DNA of 32,000 nt from an uncultured Oscillospiraceae bacterium. Lineage in GTDB: Bacteria; Bacillota; Clostridia; Oscillospirales; Oscillospiraceae. Positions 2,943 to 22,316 of this stretch are shown in pieces (position 1 is the first letter of the stretch; every line of letters starts with the position of its first letter). The position numbers were made by a program, and so were the translations under genes. The stretch covers positions 8,612 to 40,611 of the forward strand of contig CAKTQP010000015.1 in assembly GCA_934597165.1 (NCBI GenBank), given 5' to 3'. Under the pieces are notes generated by a model. That model saw nothing but the letters and a program-made list of their open reading frames with translations. It was not told the origin of the DNA and did no database searches.

Positions 2943-3434
2943 ATGATCGGTTGGGTGTTGTTGGAAGGACTTGGACTTGGCGTTCTGCTGGTCTTGGTCT
3001 GTGTGTTTGGCATCCGCAAGGGTGCCGTGGGGATGGTGCATCTGTATCACACGGAGGTGCAGGAACGCTGTGTGGCGCTGGGGCTGACCAAGCAGGAGGC
3101 CATCCAGCGGAACAGCCTCCGCTTCAAGCTCTGCTGTGTGCCTGGTTACATCATCTATGTGCTGGTCTTTGTCTACGCCGTCAATGGGGCGCGGGGGTTT
3201 GGCACCGGCTTTTGGCAGCTGTTCGGTATCCTCTTCGTCATGAACCTCATCGACCGCTTTTTCGTGGACGGCTGGTGGGTGGGGCACACAAAGGCGTGGG
3301 TCATCCCCGGCACAGAGGATCTCCGGCCGTACATCACCGCCCAGGACAAGAAACGCAAGTGGCTGGCCGGCACCGTGGGCATGGCGGTCATCGCCGCTAT
3401 CCTGGCCGGGGTCATGGCGCTGCTCCTGCCGTAA
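2943..3434 (+). CDS. Hypothetical integral membrane protein (about 4 TM segments)
   Basis: 163 aa, with RBS GGAAAGGAGG 7 nt upstream. Hydrophobic segments are visible at the N-terminus, in the middle (twice) and at the C-terminus. I recognise no family. Confidence 0.7.
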   Translation: MIGWVLLEGLGLGVLLVLVCVFGIRKGAVGMVHLYHTEVQERCVALGLTKQEAIQRNSLRFKLCCVPGYIIYVLVFVYAVNGARGFGTGFWQLFGILFVMNLIDRFFVDGWWVGHTKAWVIPGTEDLRPYITAQDKKRKWLAGTVGMAVIAAILAGVMALLLP

Positions 3435-16602: not shown

Positions 16603-17760
16603 ATGACCAGAATTTACATCATCCGCCATGCGGAGGCGGAGGGAAATCTATACCGGCGCATCCATGGTCAGTACAACAGCCTGGTCACCCCGCTGGGGTA
16701 CCGGCAGATTGAGGCGCTGGAGAAGCGGTTCCAGGATATCCATCTGGACGCCGTCTATTCCAGCGACCTGTTCCGCACCCAGACCACGGCCAAAGCCCTC
16801 TACCTGCCCAAGGGTCTGCCCCTGCAGCTGGAACCGGGGCTGCGGGAGATCTCCATGGGGGATTGGGAGGACGACACCTGGGGCGGCGCGGCGCGGAAGC
16901 ATCCGGAGCAGATGGCCTATTTCTCCGGCGGCAACGCTCACTACACCCCTATGGGCGGCGAGAGCTTTCAGGAGCTGCGGCAGCGGGTGGTGTCCACCTA
17001 CTATCGCCTGGCGGCAGCCAACGACGGCAAGACCATTGCCTGTGTCAGCCACGGGGAAGCCATTCGGACGGCGGTGAACGCCTTTTATGGACGCCCCTTG
17101 GAGGAGATGCACAACATGATCCCCAGTGATAACACGGCGGTCAGCTGTGTGGAGATCGAAGGGGAGACGGCTAAGGTGCTCTTCTATGGAGATGGTTCCC
17201 ACCTGACACCGGAACTGTCCACCCTGGGCAAACAGACCTGGTGGCGGGAGCCCAAGGAGAAAGCAGCCATTGAAGACCAGAATATTTGGTATCGCCCTTG
17301 GGAGCCGGTGGCGGAGCGGGCGCTGTATGAGAGCTATCGGCGAGAGGCTTGGATCAGCGTCCACGGCGATGAGCCCTGTCCCATGGAGCAGTTCTATCAG
17401 GCGGCGAAAACGTCCAGCGAACAGGATGCCAAAGCGGTCATGGTGGCCATGAACGGGGACGAGATTGCCGGTCTGCTGCAAATGGACTTGGAACGATACG
17501 CAGAAGCGAACGCCGGGTACATCCCCTTCTACTATATGAACCAAAAGTTCCGCCATCACGGCCTGGGCATCCAGCTCATCGGCCAGGCGGTGGCCACCTT
17601 CCGTCCCATGGGGCGCACCAAACTGCGTCTGCGGTGCAGCCCGGACAACGCATTAGCTCAGCGGTTCTACCTGCGCAACGGGTTCACCGACATCGGCCCG
17701 GCCACGGACAGTGCCGTGCCGCTGCGGCTGATGGAGAAAGAAATCGGGTATCCGGTATGA
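16603..17760 (+). CDS. Histidine phosphatase (phosphoglycerate-mutase-like) fused to a C-terminal GNAT acetyltransferase domain
   Basis: 385 aa. The N-terminus is IYIIRHAEAEGN...SSDLFRTQTTA...SHGEAIR (RHG/H phosphatase signature). The C-terminus FRHHGLGIQLIGQAVA...LRC...NALAQRFYLRNGF is GNAT motif-A-like. Confidence 0.8.
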   Translation: MTRIYIIRHAEAEGNLYRRIHGQYNSLVTPLGYRQIEALEKRFQDIHLDAVYSSDLFRTQTTAKALYLPKGLPLQLEPGLREISMGDWEDDTWGGAARKHPEQMAYFSGGNAHYTPMGGESFQELRQRVVSTYYRLAAANDGKTIACVSHGEAIRTAVNAFYGRPLEEMHNMIPSDNTAVSCVEIEGETAKVLFYGDGSHLTPELSTLGKQTWWREPKEKAAIEDQNIWYRPWEPVAERALYESYRREAWISVHGDEPCPMEQFYQAAKTSSEQDAKAVMVAMNGDEIAGLLQMDLERYAEANAGYIPFYYMNQKFRHHGLGIQLIGQAVATFRPMGRTKLRLRCSPDNALAQRFYLRNGFTDIGPATDSAVPLRLMEKEIGYPV

Positions 17761-19703
17761 GCAGGAAGAAAGTAGCTGATCAAAATCCCTTCCTGCCCGT
17801 GTCCAAGGCGGACATGGAGGCCCGTGGTTGGGATTGGTATGACTTTTTGATCATCAACGGCGACGCCTATGTGGATCATCCGTCTTTCGGCGGCGTGGTC
17901 ATCGCCCGCACGTTGGAGGCGGAGGGGTATCGGGTGGCGTTCTTGCCACAACCGGACTGGCACAGTGCCGATGCGTTCCTGGCTATGGGGAAACCCCGCC
18001 TGGCGGTCATGCTCTCCTCTGGCAACCTGGACTCCATGGTGGCTCACTACACTGCCGCCAAAAAGCGCCGTCGCCAGGACGCTTATTCCCCCGGCCATCA
18101 GACCGGCTTGCGTCCGGATCGGGCGGTCATCGTCTACGCCAACCGGGTGCGGGAGGCCTTTTCGGACACACCCCTCATCATCGGCGGTCTGGAAGCCTCC
18201 TTGCGGCGATTTGCCCACTATGACTACTGGAGCAACCAGGTGCGTCGAGCCATCTTGTTCGACGCCAGAGCCGACCTGCTCATCTACGGTATGGGGGAGG
18301 CGGCCGCGTTGGAGATTGCTGCGCAGCTCAACGCCGGTGTGCCGGTGAGCGACATTACCACCGTTCGGGGCACCAGCTTTGCCGCACGAGAGCGGGAGGA
18401 TTGCGTGTATCCGTGGGTGGAGGTGCCCTCTTATGAAGAGGTGAAGGCGGACAAGGTGGCTTACGCCAAGGCCAACCAGGTGGAGTACGAGGAACACGAC
18501 CCGGTGCGGGGCAAGGCCATCTTGCAGAAGCATGGGAACCGGTGGCTGGTGACCAACCCGCCCCAGATGCCCCTGTCCACCAAGGAGTTGGATCGCATTG
18601 CGGAGCTGCCCTACGTCCGGGAGCCGCACCCCATGTACGACGCCATGGGCGGTGTGCCTTCCATCGAGGAGGTTCGGTTTTCGGTCACCCATAACCGAGG
18701 GTGTATCGGCGGCTGTAACTTCTGTGCCCTGGCCTTTCATCAGGGGCGGATGATGACCTGCCGCAGTCACGAGAGCGTCATCCGAGAGGTCACGGCGCTG
18801 ACCCATCACCCTGGATTTAAGGGCTACATCCACGATGTAGGCGGCCCTACGGCTAACCTGCGCCACCCAAGCTGTAAGAAGCAGCTGAAGGAGGGGGTCT
18901 GCGCCAAACGGGTGTGTTTGGCGCCCAAGCCCTGTCCCAACCTGGATGCGGATGAGTCCGATTATGTGGCGCTGCTGCGGAAGCTGCGAAAGATTCCTGG
19001 CATCAAGAAGATCTTCATCCGCTCCGGCATCCGCTATGACTATATGCTCTGTGACAAACGGGACACCTTCTTTCGGGAGCTGGTGCAGTACCATGTGTCC
19101 GGTCAGTTGAAGGTGGCGCCGGAGCACTGCATCAATTCGGTGCTGGACTATATGGGCAAGCCCCATATCGAGGTCTATGAGCGGTTTCAGCAGAAGTACA
19201 ACGCCCTGAACAAAAACGCTGGGAAAAAGCAGTTTTTGGTGCCTTATTTGATGTCCTCCCACCCAGGCAGCACCTTGCAGGATGCGGTGGCGCTGGCGGA
19301 GTACCTGAATGCCAGCCATCGGCTGCCGGAGCAGGTGCAGGACTTCTACCCGGTGCCTGGCTGCCTGTCCACCTGTATGTATCACACCGGCATCGACCCG
19401 CGCACCATGAAACCGGTATACGTGGCCACCGATCCCCATGAAAAGGCCTTGCAGCGTGCCTTGCTCCAGTGGAAGGTTCCGGAAAACTGGAAGCTGGTAC
19501 GGGAAGCGCTGCAAAAGGCGGGGCGAGAGGATCTGATCGGGTTTGACGCCCGGTGCTTGATCCGGCCTTATCCGCCGAGAGCGAAGAAGGTCGAGGGAAA
19601 AGGCGGCGAGAAGCGTCCGAAAGGGAAGCCCGAAGCTGGCAAAGGGAAGAAATCCACAGGGCGTGTGGAGAAAAAGGCTGGCGGGCGGAAACGGAAAGGA
19701 TAA
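17757..19703 (+). CDS. ygiQ: YgiQ-family radical SAM protein (UPF0313)
   Basis: The track ORF 17634..19703 is trimmed to ATG 17757, which overlaps the upstream stop (ATGA). The protein is 648 aa. FLPVSKADMEARGWDWYDFLIINGDAYVDHPSFG is a YgiQ-type N-terminus, and the radical SAM triad is CIGGCNFC. The C-terminal tail is Lys/Gly-rich. Confidence 0.9.
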   Translation: MSRKKVADQNPFLPVSKADMEARGWDWYDFLIINGDAYVDHPSFGGVVIARTLEAEGYRVAFLPQPDWHSADAFLAMGKPRLAVMLSSGNLDSMVAHYTAAKKRRRQDAYSPGHQTGLRPDRAVIVYANRVREAFSDTPLIIGGLEASLRRFAHYDYWSNQVRRAILFDARADLLIYGMGEAAALEIAAQLNAGVPVSDITTVRGTSFAAREREDCVYPWVEVPSYEEVKADKVAYAKANQVEYEEHDPVRGKAILQKHGNRWLVTNPPQMPLSTKELDRIAELPYVREPHPMYDAMGGVPSIEEVRFSVTHNRGCIGGCNFCALAFHQGRMMTCRSHESVIREVTALTHHPGFKGYIHDVGGPTANLRHPSCKKQLKEGVCAKRVCLAPKPCPNLDADESDYVALLRKLRKIPGIKKIFIRSGIRYDYMLCDKRDTFFRELVQYHVSGQLKVAPEHCINSVLDYMGKPHIEVYERFQQKYNALNKNAGKKQFLVPYLMSSHPGSTLQDAVALAEYLNASHRLPEQVQDFYPVPGCLSTCMYHTGIDPRTMKPVYVATDPHEKALQRALLQWKVPENWKLVREALQKAGREDLIGFDARCLIRPYPPRAKKVEGKGGEKRPKGKPEAGKGKKSTGRVEKKAGGRKRKG

Positions 19704-19758: not shown

Positions 19759-20421
19759 TTACTTTTTCCCCTCCGACGACTTCCCTTGGCTCAAGAAGTG
19801 GTCGCACCACTCGCACAGGGGACAGAGCTCACACTTGGCCGTCCGAGCGGTACACACCGCCCGTCCGTGGAGCACCAGTCGGTGGCAGAAGTCGTTGGAT
19901 TCCTCCGGCGGCAGCACTTCTCGCAGCTGCTTTTCCACCTTCACCGGGTCTTTCGTTCCGTCGGTCAGGCCCAGGCGACCGGAGATGCGGATGCAGTGGG
20001 TGTCTGCCACCACGCAGCCGGGCTCGTGGAAGATGTCGCCGCGGATGAGGTTGGCGGTCTTGCGGCCGATGCCGGGGAGTTTTAACAGGTCGTCCATGTC
20101 CCGGGGGACTTTGCCGCCGAAGTCCCGCAGCAGCATTTGGGCGCAGCCCACCAGGTCGCGGCTCTTGCCGTTGTAGAAGCCGCAGGAGTGGATGTATTCC
20201 GCCACCTCTTCCGGCGCCGCCTCGGCAAAGGCTTCCAGAGTGGGGAAGCGCTGGAACAGGGCGGGGGTGACCTTGTTCACTCGGGCGTCAGTACACTGGG
20301 CGGACAGGCGGACGGAGAACAGCAGTTCGTAATCTTTTTGGTATTGCAGGGAACAGATGCCATCCGGGTACAGTTCTTTTAGTCCGTTGACGATGGCGCG
20401 TGCCTCTTCTTTGGTCTTCAT
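19759..20421 (-). CDS. nth: Endonuclease III (DNA-(apurinic/apyrimidinic site) lyase)
   Basis: The track ORF 19759..20529 is trimmed to ATG 20421, which follows CAGGAGG. The 220-aa protein has the HhH-GPD motif LLKLPGIGRKTANL and a C-terminal 4Fe-4S cluster C..RTAKCELCPLCEWC. Confidence 0.9.
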   Translation of the reverse strand: MKTKEEARAIVNGLKELYPDGICSLQYQKDYELLFSVRLSAQCTDARVNKVTPALFQRFPTLEAFAEAAPEEVAEYIHSCGFYNGKSRDLVGCAQMLLRDFGGKVPRDMDDLLKLPGIGRKTANLIRGDIFHEPGCVVADTHCIRISGRLGLTDGTKDPVKVEKQLREVLPPEESNDFCHRLVLHGRAVCTARTAKCELCPLCEWCDHFLSQGKSSEGKK

Positions 20422-20453
20422 GGCGTGTTCCTCCTGTGATAAAGTCACCATTG

Positions 20454-20462
20454 ATTGTAGCA
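20454..20462 (-). promoter_or_regulatory. Extended -10 element (TGcTACAAT) upstream of nth
   Basis: On the minus strand TGCTACAAT lies about 30 nt upstream of the nth ATG. The -35 is weak. Confidence 0.4.
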
Positions 20463-20506
20463 TAAAACAGGGGGCGGGAAAACCCATGTTTGTAGATTTG
20501 AAATAG

Positions 20507-20535
20507 TTGACAAGTTTGGCGGGATGCACTATACT
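20507..20535 (+). promoter_or_regulatory. Consensus sigma-A promoter with no protein gene downstream
   Basis: TTGACA (20507-20512), exactly 17 nt, TATACT (20530-20535). It points toward the 3' end of the minus-strand 29-codon ORF. Confidence 0.6.
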
Positions 20536-20541
20536 GAGGAT

Positions 20542-20642
20542 AGAGCAAGGGCGCTACCGGCAAAACGGTTAGCCCCCCTGAAAAGTTACTTTATAAGAAA
20601 TAACCGCTCAAGGTGAAGGCTGAGCGGTTACTTCTTTATGTT
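20542..20642 (+). ncRNA. Candidate ~100-nt sRNA (putative type I antitoxin), promoter-to-terminator unit
   Basis: The predicted TSS is about 7 nt after the -10. The unit contains a hairpin at 20552-20573, a single-stranded C6 tract at 20573-20578, and a 10-bp terminator stem at 20601-20630 followed by CTTCTTTATGTT. It has no ATG with an RBS. The ends are predicted, not mapped. Confidence 0.4.
20601..20630. terminator. Shared bidirectional terminator hairpin of the small ORF and the candidate sRNA
   Basis: TAACCGCTCA-(10 nt)-TGAGCGGTTA. The minus strand continues TTTCTTATAAAG and the plus strand CTTCTTTATG. The stop codon of the small ORF lies in the stem. Confidence 0.65.
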
Positions 20643-20717
20643 CCATGCAGCAATGAACAGGCCAACAAGACCGATCAAAACCATCGTATACTGAAACAGG
20701 TCAGAATAGGTTACCAT
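20628..20717 (-). CDS. 29-aa hydrophobic peptide, candidate type I toxin (Hol-Tox / holin-like toxin pattern)
   Basis: The minus strand reads GAAAGGGGGGCTGTCTC-ATG. Translation: MVTYSDLFQYTMVLIGLVGLFIAAWNIKK followed by TAA. It has a single TM helix with a KK terminus. In the track it appears only as the tail of the 526-aa shadow ORF 20628..22208. Confidence 0.6.
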   Translation of the reverse strand: MVTYSDLFQYTMVLIGLVGLFIAAWNIKK

Positions 20718-20827
20718 GAGACAGCCCCCCTTTCCACAAGAAACAGGGGGCAAGAAGTATCGCCCCCTGATGAGCAGAGGGACAAACCGCTTGCCGTTTA
20801 TCGGTAGCGCCATAAAAAGGATAACAC

Positions 20828-20856
20828 AAAATGCGACAAAACGCAATGTGGTCTGT
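20828..20856 (-). promoter_or_regulatory. Candidate promoter of the small toxin-like ORF (TTGCGT-17-TGtTATCCT)
   Basis: Read on the minus strand: -35 TTGCGT (20851-20856), 17-nt spacer ending in TGT, -10 TATCCT (20828-20833). This implies a 5' UTR of about 100 nt. Confidence 0.35.
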
Positions 20857-20882
20857 TCGGCTGCAGCACGAGAAAAAGTCTG

Positions 20883-20916
20883 GGACAAACATCCCAGACT
20901 TTTTTGGCACATTGCA
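20883..20916. terminator. Bidirectional intrinsic terminator with no adjacent annotated gene end
   Basis: AAAAAGTCTGGGA-CAAACA-TCCCAGACTTTTTT, a 9-bp GC-containing stem extended by A/T runs on both sides. Confidence 0.65.
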
Positions 20917-20964
20917 TGAGAGAAAACGGAATATTCCACAAGGTCCATCTCTTTTCTTGCGTCA

Positions 20965-21020
20965 CAAAATGTGGTAAAATAGACGCAAACGCGTCTCAAA
21001 ACGTGGCAAAATAGACGCAA
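20965..21020 (+). repeat. Two 24-nt direct repeats (22/24 identical) 32 nt apart upstream of rarA
   Basis: CAAAATGTGGTAAAATAGACGCAA (20965-20988) and CAAAACGTGGCAAAATAGACGCAA (20997-21020). Each contains a TGG-nAAAAT extended -10-like element. The palindrome AGACGC-AAAC-GCGTCT (20981-20996) lies between them. Confidence 0.6.
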
Positions 21021-21044
21021 GTATGGAGAAAGGAGGCGGCACAG

Positions 21045-22316
21045 ATGCAGTACCGTCCGTTGGCCGATGAGATACGGCCTCAGACCTTGGAGGACGTGGT
21101 GGGGCAGAGCCACATCCTGGGCAAGAACGGGGTGTTGCGCCGCATCATCGAGAGCGGTCAGGTGCCCAACATGGTCTTTTTCGGCCCGTCCGGCACCGGC
21201 AAGACCACGGTGGCCAACATCATCGCCAACCAGACCCACCGCACCCTGCACCGGCTCAACGCCACCACCGCCTCCATTGCGGACATCCGGGAGGTCATCG
21301 CCGATGTGGACACCTTGCTGGCGCCCAACGGGGTGCTGCTCTACCTGGATGAGATCCAGTATTTCAACAAAAAGCAGCAGCAGTCCCTGTTGGAGTTTAT
21401 GGAGAACGGCAAGATCACCGTCATCGCCTCCACCACGGAGAACCCCTATTTCACCATCTTCAACGCCGTCCTCTCCCGCTCCACCGTCTTCGAGTTCAAA
21501 CCGGTGACGCCCCAGGAGATCCGTCCGGCGGTGGACCGGGCGTTCCGGCTGTTGGAAGAGCGCAATGGCGTGACCATCCAGGCGTCGGACGACGTGCGGG
21601 ACTACCTGGCCACCGCCTGCGGCGGCGATGTGCGCAAGGCCATCAACGGGGCGGAGCTGCTCTATACTGCTGGCGAGCAGGTGGACGGCGTGGTGACGGT
21701 GACCTTGGAGGACGCGGAGCTGGTGGGACAGAAGTCCGCATTTCGCTATGACCGGGACGGGGACAACCACTATGACATCCTGTCCGCCCTGCAAAAGTCC
21801 ATCCGAGGCAGTGACCCGGACGCGGGGCTGCACTATCTGGCACGGCTGTTGGAGGCGGGGGACTTGGTGTCCGCCTGTCGGCGGCTCATGGTCATCGCGT
21901 CCGAAGACGTGGGGCTGGCCTATCCTCAGGCGGTGTCCATTGTGAAATCCTGCATCGACGCTGCCAATATGCTGGGGTTGCCGGAGGCACGTATCCCCTT
22001 GGCGGAGGCGGTCATCTTGATGGCTACCGCACCCAAATCCAACTCCGCCATCATGGGCATCGACGCCGCCCTCAGCGATATCCGAAAGGGAAACTATGGG
22101 GACATCCCCGCCTATCTCATGGACAGCCACTACGCCGGCGCTAAAAAGCTGGGTCGCGGGCTGACCTACCAGTATCCCCACAGCTTCCCTAACCACTATG
22201 TCCCCCAACAGTATCTGCCCGACCGGCTCAAGGACGCCGTCTATTATCAGTACGGCGAGAACAAGACCGAACAGGCGGCAAAAGCCTATTGGGCGCGCAT
22301 CAAGGGGAAGGCGTAA
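21045..22316 (+). CDS. rarA: Replication-associated recombination protein A (AAA+ ATPase)
   Basis: 423 aa, RBS GAAAGGAGG. RPQTLEDVVGQSHILG, Walker A GPSGTGKTT, Walker B LLYLDEIQYFNK, and the C-terminal MgsA region DNHYDILSALQKSIRGSDPDAGLHYLARLLEAG are present. Confidence 0.9.
   Translation: MQYRPLADEIRPQTLEDVVGQSHILGKNGVLRRIIESGQVPNMVFFGPSGTGKTTVANIIANQTHRTLHRLNATTASIADIREVIADVDTLLAPNGVLLYLDEIQYFNKKQQQSLLEFMENGKITVIASTTENPYFTIFNAVLSRSTVFEFKPVTPQEIRPAVDRAFRLLEERNGVTIQASDDVRDYLATACGGDVRKAINGAELLYTAGEQVDGVVTVTLEDAELVGQKSAFRYDRDGDNHYDILSALQKSIRGSDPDAGLHYLARLLEAGDLVSACRRLMVIASEDVGLAYPQAVSIVKSCIDAANMLGLPEARIPLAEAVILMATAPKSNSAIMGIDAALSDIRKGNYGDIPAYLMDSHYAGAKKLGRGLTYQYPHSFPNHYVPQQYLPDRLKDAVYYQYGENKTEQAAKAYWARIKGKA

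Follow-up and report, generated by a model that had tools for sequence, protein, structure and literature searches.

In the bsrG mRNA of the Bacillus subtilis prophage SPbeta, the two ends of the message are paired with each other. Structural probing placed 5' nucleotides 1-35 opposite 3' nucleotides 232-262 in a helix called P1, with the Shine-Dalgarno (SD) sequence held in a stem (PMC3834814). SR4, the antisense RNA of this type I toxin-antitoxin system, is complementary to the 3' half of P1; its binding frees the 5' nucleotides of the mRNA, and sequestration of the SD grows from 4 to 8 bp (PMC3834814).

Parts of this arrangement recur in other systems. In the txpA/RatA pair of the B. subtilis skin element and its divergent 27-aa relatives EF3263 and BH0344, a convergent antisense RNA of about 100-110 nt (about 110 nt for EF3263 and BH0344) overlaps the 3' end of the toxin mRNA. 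The 'holin-like toxins' are the TxpA family (Fozo et al. 2010). The convergent transcripts of fst/RNAII, the par locus of pAD1, share a bidirectional terminator, and a short direct repeat in the DNA makes the antisense RNA complementary to the translation initiation region. In hok/Sok, long-range 5'-3' pairing closes the toxin mRNA. In Clostridia, type I systems have been described almost only for C. difficile, where they belong to unrelated families; a 2019 review has TxpA-like sequences only in C. bolteae. Annotation pipelines overlook type I systems.

Here we describe a locus whose predicted design follows that of bsrG/SR4. The window, a stretch of 32,000 nt from a human-gut Oscillospiraceae bacterium, carries in the spacer between nth and rarA what we regard, with good confidence from sequence comparison, as an insertion: a type I toxin-antitoxin module that resembles BsrG and TxpA and so is of Hol-Tox type. 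The initial annotation had recognized a small Hol-Tox-like gene and was silent on the antitoxin side; the convergent promoter, the antisense terminator and a covarying helix that joins the ends of the toxin mRNA are added by the present analysis. We observe coding selection on the ORF, a family of related peptides, conserved promoter and terminator motifs, and covariation in the RNA helices.

On one side the module adjoins nth, whose product is endonuclease III (TIGR01083, 212.9 bits; cut-off 211.7), and on the other a gene for a RarA-type AAA ATPase. The gap between them measures 623 nt and has a GC content of 0.44-0.51 against 0.60-0.66 in the flanks, much as first described (an AT-richer gap of about 600 bp). 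A self-contained 29-codon gene had been proposed here, and translation of 20717-20628 on the minus strand bears out both its coordinates and its peptide; the SD, too, lies 7 nt 5' of the ATG, where it had been placed. The features that concern us, named by the toxin-antitoxin reading, are these:

20873-20904, both strands: perfect 13-bp hairpin, AAAAAGTCTGGGA / TCCCAGACTTTTT, with A/T runs on either side, between the toxin promoter and rarA.
20818-20846, minus strand: predicted toxin promoter, with -35 TTGCGT (20846-20841), a 17-nt spacer containing TG, and -10 TATCCT (20823-20818).
20775-20811, minus strand: 5' arm of the long-range helix P1, GGCGCUACCG...GUCCCUCUG, starting at the predicted 5' end of the toxin mRNA.
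20744-20769, minus strand: 5'-UTR hairpin P2, CAGGGGGCGATACTTCTTGCCCCCTG; 82% of family cells are paired, and 3 pairs have double changes.
20725-20735, minus strand: SD sequence, GGAAAGGGGGG, followed by 7 nt (CTGTCTC) and the ATG; mostly base-paired by prediction.
20628-20717, minus strand: toxin ORF, ATG to TAA, 29 codons plus stop, product MVTYSDLFQYTMVLIGLVGLFIAAWNIKK.
20595-20636, both strands: hairpin P3 over the last toxin codons and the stop, with a U-rich tail on the plus strand; predicted terminator of the antisense RNA.
20550-20580, minus strand: 3' arm of P1, CAGGGGGGCUAACCGUUUUGCCGGUAGCGCC, the complement of the 5' arm, lying within the span of the predicted antisense RNA.
20542-20642, plus strand: predicted antisense antitoxin RNA of about 100 nt, its ends placed from the promoter and the terminator.
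20507-20535, plus strand: convergent (antitoxin) promoter, TTGACA-17-TATACT, agreeing with the consensus at 11 of 12 positions and pointing at the toxin gene.

The toxin ORF is the 3' end of a 526-aa ORF (20628-22208, minus strand) that runs antisense through rarA. The earlier judgement that this long ORF is spurious, with the 29-codon gene as its tail, stands. A second spurious ORF, of 615 aa (17667-19514, minus strand), lies antisense to a radical-SAM gene; both are typical of high-GC coding DNA, and in simple ORF lists the 526-aa frame masks the real 29-codon gene. Just upstream of rarA, at 20959-21020, lie two tandem 30-nt direct repeats, GCGTCACAAAATGTGGTAAAATAGACGCAA and GCGTCTCAAAACGTGGCAAAATAGACGCAA, which are 90% alike. 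Inverted pentamers, GCGTC/GACGC, bound each repeat, and within each there is a TGnTAAAAT that looks like an extended -10; the pair may represent a rarA promoter or operator that was duplicated.

Is it the peptide that is conserved, or only the nucleotides that encode it? With the ORF incidental, the conserved element could be a non-coding, structured RNA or a MITE-like inverted repeat in the DNA. The module folds strongly, contains a covarying terminal inverted repeat and is inserted at different intergenic sites, as such an element might be. The substitutions tell another story. Across 35 non-redundant modules, pN/pS is 0.34 in frame, compared with 0.96 and 2.3 in the two shifted frames, and the entropy at codon positions 1, 2 and 3 is 0.86, 0.42 and 1.34 bits. 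The window and locus L009, whose DNA is 69% identical over 288 nt, differ by 17.8 synonymous and 10.2 non-synonymous changes (pN/pS 0.18); one serine codon has passed from TCT to AGC, a synonymous change. The toxin ORF is under purifying selection at the protein level, and the frame-specific pN/pS together with the codon-position pattern rejects the alternative that only the nucleotides are conserved. The initial annotation had named conservation of the nucleotides alone as one of the outcomes that would speak against its reading; relatives conserve the ORF (pN/pS 0.18-0.34). The ATG, the SD and the position of the stop are conserved as well, and the G-run of the SD is kept in the 35 aligned modules. 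With the coding evidence largely refuting it, we give the reading in which the ORF is incidental next to no chance.

A similarity search had been proposed along with the gene, and the peptide proves to have hundreds of homologues. An exhaustive HMM search found 280 representatives of 50%-identity clusters at E<=1e-3, and a word-seeded search found 1144 clusters at 90% identity. Near-identical products of 29-30 aa occur on hundreds of human-gut metagenome contigs, on which the order rarA-peptide-nth is kept. Coding-type substitution and this wealth of homologues argue, far beyond chance, that the 29-codon ORF is a real gene. Trimmed to the conserved start, the family peptides have 27-31 aa and the consensus MVTYSDLFQxxLVIIGIIGLFIxxxKKK. 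Many database 'proteins' of 40-100 aa end in the toxin peptide because gene callers prolong the ORF upstream through the 5' UTR. Among the 280 representatives and 1144 clusters, no entry carries a Pfam domain or a name beyond 'hypothetical protein', and none of the papers searched contains the motifs of the family. Two database entries, P0026 and P0155, are in-frame fusions of two copies of the peptide. A recurrent variant, MVTYSDLFNYTLVICAIVSICIS..., found at about position 1500 of five loci (L186, L190, L193, L194 and L196), has lost the lysine tail and runs into unrelated sequence; the antisense promoter is absent there as well, so that these loci may share an insertion or deletion junction.

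The window peptide has one hydrophobic stretch, at about residues 8-25 (GRAVY 1.02), and ends in KK, in agreement with the single transmembrane (TM) helix and the KK end noted at first. Among 138 family members the first 8-9 residues are conserved far more than the TM segment. This pattern would suit a different function: a membrane protein under antisense RNA control that is not toxic at its physiological level, which could modulate some complex of the membrane or envelope, or serve a prophage in lysogeny or exclusion. In that case a specific partner would account for the near-invariant MVTYSDLFQ. The weak similarity of 21 of the 138 members to the competence inhibitor ComI (best E=3.1e-5) points the same way, as do the copies that lie beside integrase and repressor genes in predicted prophages. 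The literature adds a caution, since toxicity is often seen only on overproduction and some type I 'toxins' leave their native host unharmed (Fozo et al.). We nevertheless think such a non-toxic role unlikely: the nearest characterized relatives of the peptide are toxins, and the promoters, the occluded SD and the population variants described below fit the logic of a toxin and its antitoxin.

How close is the peptide to the named toxin families? The proposed similarity to a small-toxin family is not seen in the window peptide taken alone, which has no match to Hol_Tox (PF16935) in Pfam or NCBIfam at E<=10; it does appear among its relatives. PF16935 is by far the commonest match of the family, reached by 67 of 138 members at E<=10 (best 4.3e-7) and by 8 of 138 at E<=6e-5, which corresponds to about the curated (gathering) cut-off of 23.3 bits. 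In profile scoring BsrG, TxpA and BsrE all lie above that cut-off, and PF16935 is present in all of the database entries called 'putative holin-like toxin', 'Toxic peptide TxpA' or 'type I toxin-antitoxin system toxin BsrG/BsrE/BsrH'. The window peptide shares the features of these proteins: a length within 27-60 aa, one TM helix, an N-terminal M-[ST]-[TV]-[YF]-x-x-L and a basic C-terminus. Its ends, MVTYSDL...KK, can be set beside MTVYESL...KKK in BsrG (sequence from PMC4342826) and MSTFQAL...KKK in BsrE and BsrH.

The link of the window peptide to Hol_Tox is thus transitive, as only its relatives match the profile. An hhalign comparison of the family alignment (A3) with a 23-sequence Bacillus Hol_Tox alignment gave a weak alignment of 16 columns whose register is shifted (probability 14%, P=0.0019), the two profiles being very short and low in diversity; a comparison with BsrG alone was no more informative. 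Because the matches come from its relatives, we place the peptide on a distant branch of Hol_Tox (TxpA/BsrG/BsrE) that lies below the threshold, and not among the members by the Pfam criterion. The Hol-Tox-type reading of the initial annotation is supported by the length, the single TM helix, the M-x-T-Y start, the KK end and the matches within the family; the peptide by itself stays below the Pfam cut-off.

Weak matches to the Staphylococcus aureus type I toxin PepG1 also occur among the 138 members, and 31 of them match PHROG 3488, labelled 'holin' (window peptide, E=0.006). Could the peptide serve a phage as holin or in lysis, or resemble the leaderless bacteriocins? It is small, hydrophobic and cationic, and copies are found in tandem and in viral contigs. 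Where we examined the context of prophage-like copies (L103, L105 and L117), however, the neighbours are integrase, Xre repressor and ImmA genes and not a lysis cassette; in the window they are nth and rarA. Most copies, that of the window among them, occupy spacers between chromosomal genes, and genes for endolysin, immunity or export are absent from their surroundings. PHROG 3488 probably owes its label to the term 'holin-like toxin' used for the TxpA family, and we consider a lytic or bacteriocin-like role highly improbable.

If the peptide is a toxin, an antitoxin should be found next to it. Of 88 distinct intact modules, 86 have a promoter like the convergent one of the window 70-100 nt downstream of the toxin stop, and all 34 sequence clusters are represented among them, as the toxin-antitoxin logic predicts. 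On the toxin side, an extended -10 (TGnTAnnnT) is present in 31 of 35 modules and a -35 of the form TTGnnn in 30 of 35. The predicted toxin promoter would be the weaker of the two, and this weakness, like the occlusion of the SD, also counts against a non-toxic function.

The RNA predicted from the convergent promoter is fully complementary to the last four or so toxin codons, to hairpin P3 and to the 3' arm of P1. Within it, at 20571-20579, AGCCCCCCU forms a complement of the SD. P3 contains a 16-nt inverted repeat, 20595-20610 / 20621-20636, whose arms are 94% complementary; the toxin stop, TAA at 20630-20628, falls within its 3' arm and thus, as first described, inside the stem of a putative terminator. 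Which transcript does this stem terminate? The 9-nt tail of P3 contains a mean of 7.0 U on the antisense strand and 4.5 on the toxin strand, with six or more on the antisense strand in 33 of 35 modules; the antisense U-tract is the complement of the toxin's lysine codons. This asymmetry suggests that P3 is mainly the terminator of the antisense RNA of about 100 nt. In the window the tail is moderately U-rich on the toxin strand as well (5 of 9), and from the 3' arm of P1 onward to nth the prediction shows no terminator, so the toxin mRNA could stop before the 3' arm or run on into nth. Other family members have a terminator just beyond P1.

At the opposite border, the 13-bp hairpin at 20873-20904 probably ends transcription in both directions and shields the module from rarA. 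Rfam 15 covariance models run over 20300-21200 at E<=10 gave no credible match, the best being terminator-like noise; those at 20873-20904 (Thr_leader, ncr1015, rli61) are mere terminator look-alikes. On this search we reject a 6S RNA or another known RNA beside rarA, and the absence of an Rfam match also counts against reading the module as a non-coding RNA alone.

Beyond P3, the stretch 20580-20550 is the complement of the initial 37 nt (20811-20775) of the toxin mRNA as predicted. The 271-nt RNA 20815-20545 (minus strand) folds with z=-7.06, and RNAalifold on 35 divergent modules recovers the terminal helix, the helix between the anti-SD (GUCCCUCUG, 20783-20775, within the 5' arm of P1) and the SD, and the hairpin after the ORF. 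We tested covariation in a hand-specified structure of 47 pairs on the alignment of 35 modules, using 500 shuffles. Paired cells amount to 84.9%, against 76.0% after shuffling; 150 cells are changed on both sides, against 59.7; and the covariation score is 0.307, against 0.178, with none of the 500 shuffles reaching the observed value on any of the three measures. When the pairing is slid by 1-3 columns the score falls to 0.08-0.14. Double changes are found in 21 of the 27 pairs of the long-range helices (P1, three), and 7 of 12 pairs in P3 covary.

Is it RNA or DNA that forms these pairs? Part of the helix, P1b, is 89.3% paired on the toxin-sense strand and 78.6% on the antisense strand, a difference due to G-U pairs, and duplex energies favour the toxin-sense strand in 31 of 34 clusters. 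A helix that depends on the strand through its G-U pairs speaks for RNA rather than DNA. A MITE-like element bounded by the inverted repeat can be set aside on this asymmetry and on two further grounds: the repeat encloses neither promoter, and there is no target-site duplication on its flanks.

Two finer mechanisms were considered for the SD. An exact 9-nt direct repeat, AGCCCCCCT (D7), would allow the antisense RNA to pair with the SD; across the family, cognate pairing (-19.4 kcal/mol) hardly differs from non-cognate pairing (-18.8 kcal/mol), with a mean z of only -1.25, and we reject it as a conserved mechanism. The second was a clear ON/OFF switch in which a pseudo-SD in the 3' arm frees the true SD. 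The modelled probability that the SD is unpaired is 0.34 in the free window RNA and 0.14 with the 3' region blocked. The family means are 0.27 and 0.22, and the change has the expected direction in 24 of 35 modules (p=0.016). Such a shift is too small for a clear switch, and we keep the idea only as an analogy with SR4/bsrG.

How did the module come to lie between nth and rarA? In many related Oscillospiraceae the two genes are divergently adjacent with spacers of about 60-280 nt, and 80 syntenic nth-rarA loci of other Oscillospiraceae contain neither the peptide nor any spacer sequence of the module. Its absence from these short spacers indicates an insertion in the lineage of the window. Homology to distant copies stops at the borders of the module, at 20810-20529 for L009 and 20828-20624 for L090. 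We found no second copy in the window, and in cultured phage and plasmid collections no match except one weak one (E=0.3). Copies are carried by 24 IMG/VR contigs and by a contig with a DUF4355 phage-type gene; in three of the IMG/VR contigs, those mentioned above as prophage-like, the module lies beside a tyrosine integrase gene and Xre/ImmA-type genes.

Up to three modules can stand in tandem. Two or three complete ones follow each other, spaced about 355-535 nt, in an IMG/VR contig (L109, 3000-4030) and in a gap-SLH protein spacer (L093-L099, 2646-3093). At the latter locus L093 has a third, 5'-truncated copy at 3201, and in one metagenome an IS element (rve-family transposase plus HTH_Tnp_1 ORF; L098, 1311-2680) takes the place of the upstream neighbour.

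Some genomes of the window's own species have lost or rearranged about 200 nt (about 20893-20692 of the window; L091, 1500-1800). The deletion removes the toxin promoter, the 5' UTR, the SD and codons 1-9, and leaves the 3' part and the antisense gene nearly unchanged. A second, independent 5'-truncated copy likewise retains the antisense promoter. The toxin is never seen without the antitoxin, and the antitoxin is sometimes seen without the toxin, which is the pattern predicted for a toxin-antitoxin pair; copies that have repeatedly lost the 5' half of the toxin while keeping the antisense gene, together with tandem amplification, count against a non-toxic membrane protein. The deleted variant has also lost half of the 13-bp hairpin, and in it (P0010-P0018) gene callers report chimeric ORFs of 48-62 aa that run from the upstream terminator region into the C-terminal half of the toxin.

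The type I reading suggests the following course of events, in which both transcripts, the toxicity and the antisense control are inferred. From its weak promoter with an extended -10, the minus strand would yield a toxin mRNA at least about 260 nt long. Some 37 nt at its 5' end would pair with a stretch about 50-80 nt downstream of the stop, and this P1 pairing would leave the message closed with its G-rich SD in a stem. The 29-aa product would be a single-pass membrane peptide, with its conserved MVTYSDLFQ and lysine tail, presumed to damage the membrane or cell envelope in excess. From the near-consensus plus-strand promoter would come the antisense RNA of about 100 nt, ending at the hairpin over the toxin stop and pairing with the 3' 100 nt or so of the toxin mRNA, the 3' half of P1 included. 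If SR4 and bsrG are a guide, the duplex would then be cleaved, and the released 5' arm would allow the anti-SD to clamp the SD more tightly; for this last step, tightened occlusion of the SD, modelling gives modest support.

Set against the known systems, the locus resembles bsrG/SR4 in the start of the peptide (M-x-T/V-Y-x-x-L), its single TM helix and terminal lysines, in the predicted closing of the mRNA by a long 5'-3' P1 with the SD in a stem, in the predicted convergent antisense RNA that covers the 3' region including the 3' half of P1, and, at the level of the family, in its association with prophages. The conserved convergent promoter, the antisense terminator and the covarying 5'-3' helix together reproduce the bsrG/SR4 architecture and so strengthen the Hol-Tox-type reading. 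There are differences. BsrG has 38 aa, whereas the window peptide has 29 and on its own falls below Pfam detection; SR4 is about 180 nt long with an overlap of about 120 nt, whereas the antisense RNA predicted here has about 100 nt. Unlike that of bsrG/SR4, the antisense terminator of the window lies on the last codons of the toxin, the host is a high-GC gut Oscillospiraceae bacterium, and the system is known here in silico.

The txpA/RatA group shares the Pfam neighbourhood, very short members (27-30 aa) and the size and convergence of the antisense RNA as predicted in the window, although TxpA itself has 59 aa. Convergent transcripts that share a bidirectional terminator recall fst/RNAII, as does the 9-nt repeat; the peptide family is a different one with no Fst-type match, and pairing through the repeat is not statistically specific across the window's family. 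With hok/Sok the locus has the closing 5'-3' helix in common and differs otherwise: Sok pairs at the 5' leader, the mRNA becomes active through 3' trimming, and the system belongs to Proteobacteria and has an unrelated peptide.

To specialists in toxin-antitoxin systems the finding will be unsurprising in principle; its use is as comparative evidence for the bsrG-type RNA mechanism. The covarying P1, SD and anti-SD form a comparative data set on how antisense binding at the 3' end of an mRNA may control translation at its 5' end. The peptide profile and RNA alignment are ready for annotating more than 1,000 loci, and they flag small, putatively lethal-when-cloned genes that matter for the genetics of gut anaerobes.

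On present comparisons the family is a very large unannotated subfamily in gut Clostridia and their prophages, and not a new kind of system. A BsrG/TxpA-like module, mRNA-closing helix included, is abundant in the dominant, mostly uncultured Clostridia of the human gut and in the prophages that they carry. We offer a broader interpretation tentatively, as a possibility that we rate below even chances: that the loci make up one very large BsrG/TxpA-like clade of Oscillospiraceae-type gut Clostridia and their prophages, with at least 1,100 clusters at 90% identity, in which the nearly invariant MVTYSDLFQ may address one specific cellular target instead of forming a generic pore, and in which the integrase and repressor neighbourhood may reflect a part in the maintenance of lysogeny or in phage exclusion.
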